Origin: Candidatus Latescibacterota bacterium | GTDB lineage: Bacteria > Latescibacterota > UBA2968 | Assembly (NCBI GenBank): GCA_965207885.1 | Contig: OZ242311.1 | Coordinates: forward strand, 5,536,001-5,600,000 | Direction of reading: 5' to 3' | DNA: 64,000 nt | In this document: positions 16,270-61,744 of the stretch, piece after piece | Position numbering within the stretch: position 1 is the stretch's first letter | Layout: every line of letters begins with the position of its first letter | Notes under the pieces: generated by a model | Seen by the model: the letters and a program-made list of their open reading frames with translations, nothing else | Databases searched by the model: none | What the model was told of the DNA's origin: nothing | Made by a program: the position numbers and the translations under genes

Positions 16270-16540
16270 ACAAAAAAGCCCCTTCGTCATCATAGGGACG
16301 AAAGAGCTTCTCCGCGGTACCACCCTATTTGCGCTAAAAAGCACCACTCAGCGGACGGCCATCACCATCCTGTCCATTATCGGTGGATCCACCGGCTCGG
16401 CTTAATAGGAAACTGTCTTTCCATTCGGCTTTGCAGCTCGGGAGGGAACTTCGCCTGTGCATCCTGCAGATGTGTTCTCAGCCCGGGACACATCCTCTCT
16501 GTCCAGTTGGGAACAGACTACTTTTCTCCGTCATCACCTT
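16270..16540 (-). ncRNA. T-box riboswitch, Phe specifier
   Basis: Stem I motifs (GATGA..AAAGTAG, CAGAGAG, GCTGAGA), GAAG-TTC specifier at 16446-16448, T-box AGGGTGGTACCGCG at 16313-16326, terminator hairpin with T-run. Confidence 0.92.
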
Positions 16541-16593
16541 GAAGGCAAAACATAGAAATTTGCGCTACAAGTGTCAAGCCGAAAGTCGCAAAT

Positions 16594-17877
16594 CTATCCG
16601 TCAACCGTTTTTCCAAAGGACTCCACAAAAAGGAGAAAATCCGTAATACCAACCGCGCCATCGCCATCGATATCGAATTTGGGATTGGTTGATCCAAATG
16701 CCTCCACAAAAAGGAGAAAATCCGTAATATTCACTTGTTTATCACCGTTAAAATCGGCCCTGGGGTTGGCAGAAGAGACCTTGACTATAATAGAAACGGA
16801 CAATGTCTGTGTTGCACTATTCGGATCATTACTCGAAATCGTGATATTGCCCGAAAACGTGCCCGCTGTCGAACCTGGAAACCTAATCGTAACCGTCTGT
16901 GAACCATTGGGCTCCACTGTGAACATAGAAGGTTCAAAAGTCAGGCCCGATACATCGCTCTCAATACCTGTAATTTCAAGAGGACCCGTACCCGTGTTCG
17001 CGACCGTAATAGTTTGTTCACGCGTTTGACCAACGTCAATCGTCCCGAAATTAACTGCCGTTTGCGGCACAGAGATCGCTGGCGCAGAGGGCGATTGAAC
17101 TATGATAGAAACGGACAATGTCTGTGTTGCACTATTCGGATCATTACTCGAAATCGTGATATTGCCCGAAAACGTGCCCGCTGTCGAACTCGGAAACGCG
17201 ATCGTCACCGTAGCTGAACTATCGGGAGCCAGTGTGAACATCGTAGTATCAAACGTCAAACCCGGCACATCGCTCTCAATACCCGTAATCTCCAACGGCG
17301 CAGTACCCGTATTCGTAATCGTAATCGTTTGTTGACCTGTTTGACCGGCGTCAATCGTCCCGAAATCAACTGCCGTTTGCGGCACTGCGATCGTCGGCGC
17401 AGGGGGCGGTATTTGCGCCAATAGTTCATTAACCCCGTCTTTCACTCTTGTAACAGAACTTGAACTCAAACCGCCTATGACGGGCAATGCAGTCCCATTG
17501 GGACGAACCACAACGAAATTCTCATACTGGGCCGGAGCAGCACCACCTGCATTTAGAAGCAAGGGAAAGGTAATGCCTCCGTTCCTGCGAAAGCCATCCA
17601 CCTGTGCCTGATTGCCATTCCAAGCATCGAGACCGAGCATCTCAACATTGGGATCTGCTTTATAATCTTGCCATAAACCTTCGAGTCGCGGACCCGCGGC
17701 TCTACAGGAAGGTCAGCTATACCCAAAGACCGCAAGTATGAGCACTTTGCCGCGATAGTCAGAGGCACTATATGTATTGCCGTCGAGACCCCGTAAAGAA
17801 AAATTAACCGTTTGTGCAGAAGCGGACCCGACGAGCAAAAGCAGAATCATCGGGATGGACAATAGATATTGGCGCAT
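16594..17877 (-). CDS. secreted selenoprotein: TlpA/redoxin (UxxC) + 2 ASH/choice-of-anchor D Ig-like domains + dockerin/EF-hand-like tail
   Basis: Signal peptide MRQYLLSIPMILLLLVGSASAQ, FSLRGLDGNTYSASDYRGKVLILAVFGYS-TGA(17713-17715)-PSC in frame with ORF 16594..17640; 427 aa if TGA is read as Sec. Confidence 0.82.
16790..17395. repeat. intragenic tandem duplication (315-bp period, two Ig-like domains)
   Basis: atagaaacggacaatgtctgtgttgcactattcggatc at 16790 and 17105; protein repeat VPQTAV(D/N)FGTID...TLSVSIIV. Confidence 0.9.
17678..17712 (-). promoter_or_regulatory. bacterial SECIS element
   Basis: Immediately 3' of UGA: CCUUC..GAG-c-CGCG-[GGUC]-CGCG-a-CUC-GAAGG; apical loop 18 nt from UGA. 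Confidence 0.75.
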
Positions 17878-17923
17878 GGCATTTATCCTCGTATATTGAT
17901 GAAAATAATGACAACCAAAACCT

Positions 17924-17956
17924 CTGGATCGCGGCTCAACTTCATGCCGCGATGAC
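17924..17956. repeat. REP-like palindrome, copy A
   Basis: CTGGATCGCGGCTcaacttCATGCCGCGATGAC; homologous copies at 44210 and 61712. Confidence 0.8.
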
Positions 17957-18032
17957 GGCTCTTCTGTCCTAAAGGTATCAACGCTTCAATTTAACAGAAG
18001 TTTCTCCACAGGTCAACCACAAGGAGCGAGCG

Positions 18033-18872
18033 ATGGACATCCTCACCGAAGAAAAAAAAGCGTTTTTTGACACCTTTGGATTTCTCGCATTTCCGGGGTT
18101 ATTGGCAGATTGCATCGACGAAATTATCGATGCATTTGAAACGATATGGGCACAACGGGGTGGTGGACACAACGGACAACCGCACGACGGCATCCGTCGA
18201 TCGTGCATTGTGCCATTTATCGACCAGCACGAACGGCTGTGCGCCCTCTTAGATGACCCGCGAATAAAAGAAATCCTGGTCGGATTACTCGGTGAAAATT
18301 TCAACTACATGGGATCAGACGGAAATTACTATGCCGGAGACACGCAATGGCATTCGGATGGCTGGGGCAAGGAAATTCGATTTGTAAAAATTGCCCTGTA
18401 TCTGGATCACTTAACGCGCGACACGGGTTGTTTGCGCGTCATCCCCGGGAGTCACCACCTCAAAGATCAATATGCAAATAATGTCGAAAACACCGTCCGA
18501 AATTCCCAGGATGAATGGGACATGCACGGACCAGACATACCTGCATTAGCCCTGGAAACCAACCCGGGCGACGTCGTCTTATTCAACCACAACCTCAAAC
18601 ACGCGGCCTTTGGAGGCAGTCCACGGCGGCGGATGTTCACCATCAACTGCAGCGAACGCTTCCCTGAAGATGAAGAACATATTGCACTGTTAAAAACACA
18701 GATCGCCGTACGCGCGCGGTTCTGGATTGATCGCGCTTACGGAAAAATCATGGTCGCAACCGCTGGTCCCGAACGCAAAAAACATCTATCGCAAGTCATG
18801 GCCCACGATGGTCACCTCGCCGAACTCGCCGCACGCGCGCGGAAAGAAATGCCCGAGCCATCGCGCGGATAA
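18033..18872 (+). CDS. phytanoyl-CoA dioxygenase (PhyH) family Fe(II)/2OG oxygenase
   Basis: FFDTFGFL, WHSD, GCLRVIPGSH, PGDVVLFNHNLKH. Confidence 0.88.
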   Translation: MDILTEEKKAFFDTFGFLAFPGLLADCIDEIIDAFETIWAQRGGGHNGQPHDGIRRSCIVPFIDQHERLCALLDDPRIKEILVGLLGENFNYMGSDGNYYAGDTQWHSDGWGKEIRFVKIALYLDHLTRDTGCLRVIPGSHHLKDQYANNVENTVRNSQDEWDMHGPDIPALALETNPGDVVLFNHNLKHAAFGGSPRRRMFTINCSERFPEDEEHIALLKTQIAVRARFWIDRAYGKIMVATAGPERKKHLSQVMAHDGHLAELAARARKEMPEPSRG

Positions 18873-61711: not shown

Positions 61712-61744
61712 GTCATCGCGGCATGGTGTTGAGCCGCGATCCAG
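61712..61744. repeat. REP-like palindrome, copy C
   Basis: GTCATCGCGGCATGgtgttgAGCCGCGATCCAG (reverse orientation to copies A and B). Confidence 0.8.

Follow-up and report, generated by a model that had tools for sequence, protein, structure and literature searches.

Known systems and the locus studied

Proteins that combine a peroxiredoxin-like (Prx-like) domain of the Pfam family PF00578 with a redox motif containing selenocysteine (Sec, U) are a known predicted kind of bacterial selenoprotein. In the parts of the sources available to us, a 2026 review counts a 'Prx-like thiol:disulfide oxidoreductase, PF00578, UxxC/UxxU' among those 'predicted with high confidence' (PMC13188914), the Sargasso Sea study describes a 'Prx-like protein' with the motif UXXC (PMC1088965), and the Global Ocean Sampling (GOS) study has 'Prx-like 1' (pfam00578, UxxC) with 225 selenoproteins and names fusions to PP2C, Unknown_1-3 and Secretin_N (PMC2398784). 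Here we describe a gene on the minus strand of a stretch of 64,000 nucleotides from Candidatus Latescibacterota bacterium (GenBank assembly GCA_965207885.1, contig OZ242311.1, positions 5,536,001 to 5,600,000), which we call the window. By domain and motif descriptions the redoxin part of its product belongs to this kind, with PF00578 matched above the cut-off and a UxxC motif present. We consider it likely that this is an intact selenoprotein gene of Candidatus Latescibacterota which encodes an exported redoxin with a dockerin.

The Prx-like selenoproteins and the gene studied here have in common the PF00578 domain, a thioredoxin-type UxxC motif that starts with Sec, and numerous homologs with Cys; in both, a bacterial selenocysteine insertion sequence (SECIS) comes directly after the UGA. 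Whereas the former are described, in the available text of the sources, by redoxin domain and motif alone, the gene in the window adds a signal peptide, two immunoglobulin-like (Ig) domains and a dockerin. None of the terms 'dockerin', 'signal peptide', 'secreted' and 'periplasm' occurs in the available part of the 2026 review (PMC13188914), and literature searches that reached some of their sources in part found no published dockerin- or Ig-fused selenoprotein. Two things were thus not found in print: the Sec form of a protein composed of a signal peptide, a UxxC redoxin, two choice-of-anchor-D Ig domains and a dockerin, and the spread of this form through one class of the Latescibacterota.

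Three further groups of proteins invite comparison. ResA from Bacillus subtilis and TlpA from Bradyrhizobium have the same fold, carry their first Cys where U55 is found here, and are extracytoplasmic, as is predicted for the present protein. It differs from them by Sec in place of Cys, by a cleavable signal peptide (judged by eye) in place of a membrane anchor, by the extra Ig and dockerin modules, and by active-site neighbours of the form G-[YH]-x-U-P-x-C-x-A-A-G-P as compared to W-C-x-P-C. Cellulosomal type I dockerin enzymes also end in a pair of calcium-loop/helix repeats and also come from genomes with many dockerins and few cohesins, but here the cargo is a predicted redox selenoenzyme rather than a glycoside hydrolase, and the cohesins lie beside type IX secretion system (T9SS) sorting domains. 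HBP35 from Porphyromonas gingivalis is a hemin-binding surface protein with a thioredoxin motif and a T9SS C-terminal domain (PMC2907840, PMC3120885). Compared by the available parts of its description, HBP35 similarly joins a thioredoxin-type redox domain to a surface-attachment module, and the same kind of T9SS tail occurs on Cys relatives of the present redoxin; HBP35 has Cys and a T9SS tail, however, where the protein in the window would have Sec and a dockerin.

The in-frame TGA and its conservation

A mechanical list of open reading frames (ORFs) divides the gene into 348 amino acids (16594..17640) and 54 amino acids (17713..17877), both on the minus strand and in the same frame. If TGA is translated as U, the two form one frame of 427 codons in which codon 55 is the only TGA, with no further stop and no frameshift between codon 1 and the stop codon. 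The coordinates of this and the other features are collected in Table 1. The public gene call for the locus is a product that starts at Met80 (P0005, 348 amino acids), and the records of relatives bear no other name than 'choice-of-anchor D domain-containing protein'. Public annotation cuts the gene at the UGA and leaves the Met80-start remainder; because gene calls are cut in this way, the catalytic half of the whole family is absent from protein databases.

The sequence around the TGA reads GKVLILAVFGYS-U-PSC, and in a sequence search of solved structures U55 was placed on the leading Cys of the CxxC motif in ResA. A search for relatives covered 41 genomes from two families of the order and returned, besides the matches listed, a further 1546 weaker ones. 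By our own count among the matches listed, 66 of the 67 whose start lies no further in than query residue 27 have a single TGA; these redoxin matches range from 83% down to about 35% identity, and the sole one lacking a TGA is in genome G036. A broader sample of 151 genomes of the phylum, with a threshold of E <= 1e-12 for the redoxin domain, gave a match in 83 genomes, all from four families of one class. Among the matches listed for this sample a TGA is found in 115 of 120, none in four, and only a TAA in one. When 41 loci were aligned, the TGA stood in the same column in all of them, within G-[YHWF]-x-U-x-x-C. Since 21 of these loci were best hits and the other 20 had been picked because they were flagged '1 TGA', the alignment shows the position of the TGA and not its frequency.

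More distant homologs have Cys at this site. From the best 150 representatives plus two earlier hits, 148 were examined; three do not cover the site, and all 145 that cover it have Cys at the position of residue 55 (144 CxxC, one CxxS). Trp was never found there. Codons 1-54 are under purifying selection (dN/dS 0.26; 45 pairs of ten close orthologs). Directly after the TGA the ratio is higher, 0.61 for codons 56-78, which counts against the selenoprotein reading.

If the TGA were a recent inactivating mutation, the locus would be a nonsense pseudogene with redoxin remnants only. The Met80 start of the public product and the naming of the relatives for choice-of-anchor D alone agree with this, but a fresh mutation is hard to reconcile with a TGA that is held in one column and in nearly all listed matches down to about 35% identity, with selection on the codons that precede it, or with a frame otherwise free of stops and frameshifts, and we regard a pseudogene as exceedingly improbable. 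Decoding of the UGA as something other than Sec, through a reassigned code (TGA as Trp or Gly) or near-cognate readthrough, appears very improbable as well. The frames do stay open under such codes, yet TGA terminates 11 of the 30 open frames of at least 300 codons in the window, that of pheT among them, and several homologs use it as their true stop; the site holds Cys in homologs, neither Trp nor Gly; and the genome has the complete Sec machinery together with an fdhF-like hairpin at the fdhF spacing, as described below. A sequencing error was rejected because independent assemblies agree, and an arrangement of two separate genes was rejected because the thioredoxin fold spans the TGA.

In a tree built from 37 Sec and 121 Cys redoxin domains, 158 in all, the Sec forms all group with four Cys forms in a single clade, with a support of 97 in the Shimodaira-Hasegawa-like approximate likelihood-ratio test (SH-aLRT). 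The tree requires three changes of the Cys/Sec state, which is consistent with one early change from Cys to Sec and two reversions. The sampling of this quick tree is biased, its Cys sequences coming from protein databases that are unable to hold full-length Sec forms. The few lineages with Cys inside the clade are natural comparison pairs, and a Sec redoxin built as a surface or cellulosome-type cargo would allow reasons for the preference of Sec to Cys to be put to the test.

Judged from these comparisons, the in-frame TGA almost certainly encodes a selenocysteine at the active site. Insertion of Sec itself we infer from the sequence; that the gene yields a real Sec-containing protein is, in our view, very likely.

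The hairpin downstream of the UGA

Immediately after the UGA lies a candidate SECIS element. Its GGUC loop is closed by CGCG/CGCG and then by GAG/CUC with one C.A mismatch, and a lower CCUUC/GAAGG stem extends the hairpin in this copy only. The closest known counterpart is the element of E. coli K-12 fdhF, where SelB recognises G23, U24 and a bulged U17. Reading the fdhF sequence directly, we find 18 nt from the UGA to a 4-nt GGUC loop in both genes. Both loops sit on a G+C-rich stem, and both stems have an irregularity at position 17 when counting begins with the U of the UGA, in fdhF the bulged U and here the C.A mismatch. The stem sequences are unrelated, and the lower stem of the SECIS-like element of the present gene is not conserved among homologs. 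Because its hairpin agrees with that of fdhF in spacing and loop, the gene may be expressible in E. coli as it is, with no re-engineering.

When each of 37 distinct homologous sequences was folded locally, all 37 had a hairpin at the same place. The apical pairing is kept with changing bases: column pair 21:32 is GC in 23 sequences, CG in four and GU in two, and pair 22:31 is GU in 13, GC in 12 and AU in six. In a fixed register of eight pairs 70.6% of the cells are paired, as compared to 36-50% after a shift of the 3' partner by 1-3 columns, and the covariation score of 0.203 was reached by two of 500 shuffles. The codons in the hairpin are fixed at synonymous sites: Gly62 is GGT in 32 of 34 sequences, Ala61 is GCG in 29 of 30 and Pro63 is CCG in 30 of 36, whereas elsewhere in these genes the same codon accounts for 36%, 32% and 40%, respectively, of the codons of its amino acid. 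Binomial p-values overstate this fixation because the sequences are related. Even so, in this sequence comparison the synonymous fixation is the strongest separate argument for a constraint at the RNA level.

Several results do not favor a selected RNA structure. A stretch of 76 nt folded alone was no more stable than shuffled sequences (z = -0.49), so the support for the hairpin rests on conservation and not on energy. Two of five covariation measures do not beat the shuffles: pairs changed on both sides number three, which 334 of 500 shuffles reached, and further pair types number 11, which 408 of 500 reached. The lower four of the eight pairs are unpaired in 15-23 of the 37 sequences, where bulges put them out of register. 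The conserved peptide C-[RQ]-A-A-G-P is encoded by the same stretch as the hairpin, and due to this overlap part of the hairpin's conservation is protein constraint. RNAalifold, applied to the 41-sequence alignment, gave another, weak structure of five pairs (-3.99 kcal/mol) and no compensatory pairs; this structure was set aside as weak and lacking compensatory change. An Rfam E-value search of positions 16400-18100 gave no match to a SECIS family, only a T-box leader and chance-level hits. Covariation in the hairpin is modest.

Selenocysteine machinery and a hint of transcription

The host genome is a single contig of 6.23 Mb and contains all genes for Sec synthesis and insertion. The tRNA-Sec gene (selC) scores 70.1 bits and is called tRNA-SeC with anticodon tca by ARAGORN; selA (575 bits) adjoins selB (386 bits), and selD (369 bits) adjoins the tRNA-Sec gene. 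Among the 41 related genomes selA is above the cut-off in 40, the miss being an assembly of 430 contigs that is 91% complete. The selD gene itself (G000:C1:5699077-5700198; loci L001 and L022), directly beside the tRNA-Sec gene, has one in-frame TGA of its own.

The sequence-only reading had proposed that a single TGA joins the listed ORF to an upstream signal peptide and ribosome-binding site, that the TGA occupies the first Cys position of a thioredoxin-fold motif and that a hairpin with a GGUC loop like that of E. coli fdhF follows. All three were borne out: the 427-residue frame is preceded by GAGGA 8 nt before the ATG, U55 falls on the first Cys of ResA, and spacing and loop are identical to those of fdhF. 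Where it suggested looking further, the outcome agreed with it also, with TGA or Cys but never Trp in homologs, selA, selB, selC and selD in the genome, and the hairpin at the same place in all homologous sequences with its synonymous sites fixed.

Parts of the gene were found in four RNA-library runs from one study, labelled sponge metagenome. A single contig of 719 nt covers 17440-18100, from upstream of the ATG through the TGA, with three mismatches, and is the only one that truly bridges the TGA; positions 16742-17083 are uncovered in all four runs, a gap that carries no meaning. These contigs give a weak hint of transcription, weak because RNA libraries can contain DNA and all runs belong to one study, which also limits what they add to the case for a selenoprotein.

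Domain architecture and likely chemistry

The N-terminal domain is a redoxin with a thioredoxin fold. Residues 23-120 match Pfam AhpC-TSA (PF00578) at 44.1 bits (cut-off 26) and Redoxin at 31.7 bits (cut-off 26.6), and a sequence search of the PDB matched ResA (3c71, E = 1.1e-7). In the AlphaFold2 (AF2) model, which has a mean predicted local distance difference test (pLDDT) of 89.6, residues 22-158 form one thioredoxin fold that spans the TGA, with a helix at residues 56-60 right after U55. Foldseek superimposed the model on ResA structures with template modelling (TM) scores of 0.77-0.82 by target length and root-mean-square deviations (rmsd) of 2.2-2.5 A (1su9_B: TM 0.82, rmsd 2.2 A). The predicted TM score (pTM) of the whole protein is low, 0.49, which fits a beads-on-a-string protein. 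Speaking against a plain ResA assignment, the NCBIfam model for ResA reaches 38.8 bits against a cut-off of 170; the StoA (25.6 vs 210) and TlpA (19.1 vs 230) models also stay below their cut-offs. By fold and motif the redoxin is akin to ResA and TlpA and would work as they do, but it falls outside those NCBIfam equivalogs.

The two Ig-like domains match NCBIfam NF012200 (choice-of-anchor D; 127.2 bits, cut-off 45) and Pfam PF22544 (HYDIN/VesB-like Ig; 109.1 bits), each in two stretches. They form a 315-nt tandem duplication with 84% identity at the DNA level and 79% at the protein level (81 of 102 residues). The dockerin-type tail matches Pfam PF00404 (Dockerin_1; 24.8 bits, cut-off 22.9) and NCBIfam NF041540 (dockerin_GC; 34.9 bits, cut-off 29). 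It consists of paired repeats of the DxxGD..DFLLF type, DFNGDKQVNITDFLLF and DIDGDGAVGITDFLLF, whose 42-nt cores are 90% identical and lie 81 nt apart (repeat family D2); helices are modelled at residues 384-393 and 411-420.

Within the Ig region (window 16784-17398, minus strand; residues 166-260) there is also a sub-threshold match, 55.2 bits against 100, to NF041425, 'OS_HP2 family (seleno)protein'. The Ig part of the gene has no TGA. In a table of the paper, OS_HP2 is given as a hypothetical selenoprotein of Olavius symbionts (PMC1976440).

The same protein might reduce peroxides, as a thiol or selenol peroxidase, rather than exchange disulfides. Its best Pfam match is AhpC/TSA and the literature calls the family 'Prx-like'; moreover Sec resists over-oxidation, which would suit an enzyme that has no dedicated reductase. 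On the other hand, both the sequence and the fold matches are ResA/TlpA reductases and not peroxiredoxin structures, and the motif is the thioredoxin-type UxxC, not the TxxU/TxxC that the available part of the Sargasso Sea paper gives for peroxiredoxins (PMC1088965). We therefore regard peroxidase chemistry as unlikely. An extracytoplasmic thiol-disulfide oxidoreductase is the probable function.

Proposed export, location and docking

Residues 1-21, MRQYLLSIPMILLLLVGSASA|Q, show the n-, h- and c-regions of a signal peptide for the general secretory pathway when judged by eye, and in the model the pLDDT is below 50 at residues 1-6 and 9-19. The protein would thus appear to be exported. The host is probably a diderm of the Fibrobacteres-Chlorobi-Bacteroidetes (FCB) group.

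Cys relatives of the redoxin carry various surface-type modules. Six of the ten that were scanned have T9SS sorting tails (P0056, P0072, P0073, P0074, P0086, P0113), some along with SprB and PKD repeats, and in three others a dockerin occurs together with Ig, PKD or cadherin-like domains (P0064, P0094, P0128). In the host genome there are 40 Dockerin_1 matches above the Pfam cut-off and two cohesin modules (39.1 and 34.6 bits) near the ends of open frames of 1268 and 3038 amino acids. Each cohesin is followed directly by FlgD_ig/Por_Secre_tail, where Por_Secre_tail, with its cut-off at 27 bits, scores 26.8 in one case and 28.9 in the other, and the genome has a SprA homolog (93 bits). The two frames, L087 and L088, are neighbours (G000:C1:721112-728341; 3038 and 1268 amino acids) and both tails begin with FPNPFNP. 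Their products are candidate surface scaffolds for the 40 dockerin proteins of the genome. A complex prediction for the dockerin tail (residues 366-427) with the L087 cohesin module gave scores of 0.07 and 0.09, where the mark is 0.34, and so weighs neither for nor against docking.

The proposed mechanism starts with SelB, which with Sec-tRNA(Sec) would bind the hairpin just past the UGA and lead to selenocysteine at codon 55. The product would be exported by the secretory pathway with removal of the 21-residue signal peptide, to give a mature protein that begins with a thioredoxin-fold domain of the ResA/TlpA type, continues with two Ig-like spacers and ends in a calcium-type dockerin. How the redoxin acts, docks and selects its substrate we infer as follows: in U55-P-S-C58 the selenolate would attack disulfides (or peroxides) of substrates, and the selenenylsulfide formed with C58 would resolve the reaction. 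T9SS would put the giant cohesin-bearing proteins on the surface, and dockerin-tailed cargo, including the redoxin, would attach there; the dockerin would hold the enzyme on the cohesin modules at the ends of the two giant proteins, beside their T9SS sorting domains.

Surface display of the protein is plausible, and display outside the outer membrane through the dockerin is a tentative proposal to which we give slightly less than an even chance. Two points count against it, namely that there is no known source of electrons for a redoxin outside the cell and that the route across the outer membrane is not evident for a dockerin-tailed protein. A serious rival is a real but periplasmic selenoprotein, a TlpA/ResA-type reductase for the maturation of cytochromes or copper centres that is re-reduced by a membrane protein of the CcdA/DsbD type, with the Ig and dockerin-like modules inside the envelope. 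This would solve the electron supply problem and remove the need for a route across the outer membrane, and the nearest solved relatives, ResA, StoA, TlpA and DipZ, are extracytoplasmic and face the envelope. It is opposed by the T9SS sorting domains, PKD/SprB repeats or dockerins of close Cys relatives, which are marks of surface or secreted proteins, by the position of the genome's cohesin modules next to T9SS tails, and by copy and Ig-repeat numbers that vary widely between species, unlike those of a housekeeping maturation factor. The choice-of-anchor D domain, too, is named for its occurrence with varied surface anchors. A periplasmic role remains a substantial possibility in our estimate, though we would not expect it to prevail.

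With few known exceptions, the bacterial selenoproteins characterised so far are redox enzymes that are located in the cytoplasm or bound to membranes. If the Sec redoxin is a surface or cellulosome-type cargo, it would extend selenium biochemistry to the cell exterior, and Sec would permit thiol-disulfide chemistry on host or environmental substrates beyond the reach of cellular reductases. That the present family, multiplied and held by dockerins on T9SS-anchored cohesin scaffolds, will prove to be the first selenoenzyme shown to work outside a bacterial cell is an attractive but rather doubtful proposition.

Family spread and evolution of the locus

The layout of the protein recurs among its relatives. 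A hydrophobic, signal-peptide-like N-terminus is present in all 40 homologs in which a start was found; the remaining one of the 41 loci, L034, has no ATG, GTG or TTG start and was left out of the protein alignment. All 29 complete homologs have a dockerin-type tail at their C-terminal end. Ig domains differ in number, with one in the forms of 325-328 amino acids from the sister family and two here, and among the matches listed the open frames of orthologs in some species of the genus range from about 430 to 1695 amino acids with very variable Ig repeats (loci L030-L040). Several genomes have two adjacent copies (G004, G015, G017). Because Ig-repeat numbers differ and copies lie side by side, the locus seems to evolve fast by tandem duplication. 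With several family copies per genome, the data suggest a family that has multiplied through one class of the Latescibacterota, with variable copy number and from one to more than ten Ig spacers.

As regards architecture, the two recently duplicated Ig-like domains, the dockerin-like tail with paired DxxGD..DFLLF repeats and the export signal that the sequence-only reading had described agree with the 315-nt duplication, with the Pfam and NCBIfam dockerin models and with the N-termini of the homologs. Its suggestion that such an architecture had not been described holds in part: the Sec form and its spread are new, but UxxC redoxins are a known family, and the same arrangement of redoxin, two Ig domains and dockerin exists in public Cys forms (P0064, P0128).

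A paralog outside the window in the same genome (L045, G000:C1:5298132-5299361) encodes 436 amino acids with 37% identity. It has a signal peptide, UxxC, two Ig domains and a dockerin, as well as its own TGA and a GGGGCGG/CCGCCUU hairpin, and orthologs of it are present in most species of the genus.

A single-protein search of a named genome collection gave 11 loci, nine of them close relatives, all in metagenome-assembled genomes of Latescibacteria/Latescibacterota; among the NCBI protein records of near relatives, some bear the label Gemmatimonadota. An alignment-based search for related loci found no stretch conserved enough.

Table 1. Positions of the features of the predicted selenoprotein gene in the window
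Feature	Position	Strand	Remarks
Whole coding sequence	16594..17877	-	427 codons and TAG stop (16596-16594); orthologs 414-444 amino acids, like layout
Promoter-like site TTGACC, 17 nt, TAAATT	17988..18016	-	9/12; consensus scan only; weak
GAGGA ribosome-binding site	17886..17890	-	8 nt before ATG at 17877; read from sequence
Signal-peptide-like N-terminus, residues 1-21, ASA|Q	17815..17877	-	by eye; kept in homologs
Thioredoxin-fold redoxin domain, residues 22-158, ResA/TlpA-like	17404..17814	-	Pfam, PDB sequence match, Foldseek
TGA codon 55, first position of UxxC (U55-P-S-C58)	17713..17715	-	conserved column; Cys in distant homologs
SECIS-like element	17678..17712	-	upper hairpin 17702-17683, GGUC loop 17694-17691, 18 nt after UGA
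Ig-like domain 1, choice-of-anchor D / HYDIN-ASH type	17099..17398	-	NF012200, PF22544, repeat family D1
Ig-like domain 2, tandem duplicate of domain 1	16784..17083	-	315-nt period
Dockerin-type tail, residues 366-427	16597..16782	-	two calcium-loop/helix repeats, 42-nt cores 16688-16729 and 16607-16648

Neighbouring elements

A consensus scan gave three promoter-like sites in the region, where 2.2 were expected. A promoter-like site at 16577-16549 and a match to the T-box leader (RF00230; window 16400-16543, minus strand) lie in the interval that separates the pheS-pheT frames (16347-12995) from the end of the selenoprotein gene. The T-box match scores 53.3 bits against a gathering score of 93 (E = 2.1e-10), its 3' end being cut by the edge of the search. 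Since this match and the promoter-like site precede pheS-pheT, these genes look like a separate unit under T-box control.

Upstream of the selenoprotein gene, at 17928-17953, there is a palindrome with 8-bp arms (ATCGCGGC/GCCGCGAT) and a 10-nt loop, of which a second copy is found at 61715-61740; 0.04 copies were expected in the window. Many RNA-library contigs that have nothing else in common match the copy upstream of the gene, their ends being loose on either side of it, and the palindrome looks like a dispersed repeat of the repetitive extragenic palindromic (REP) type.

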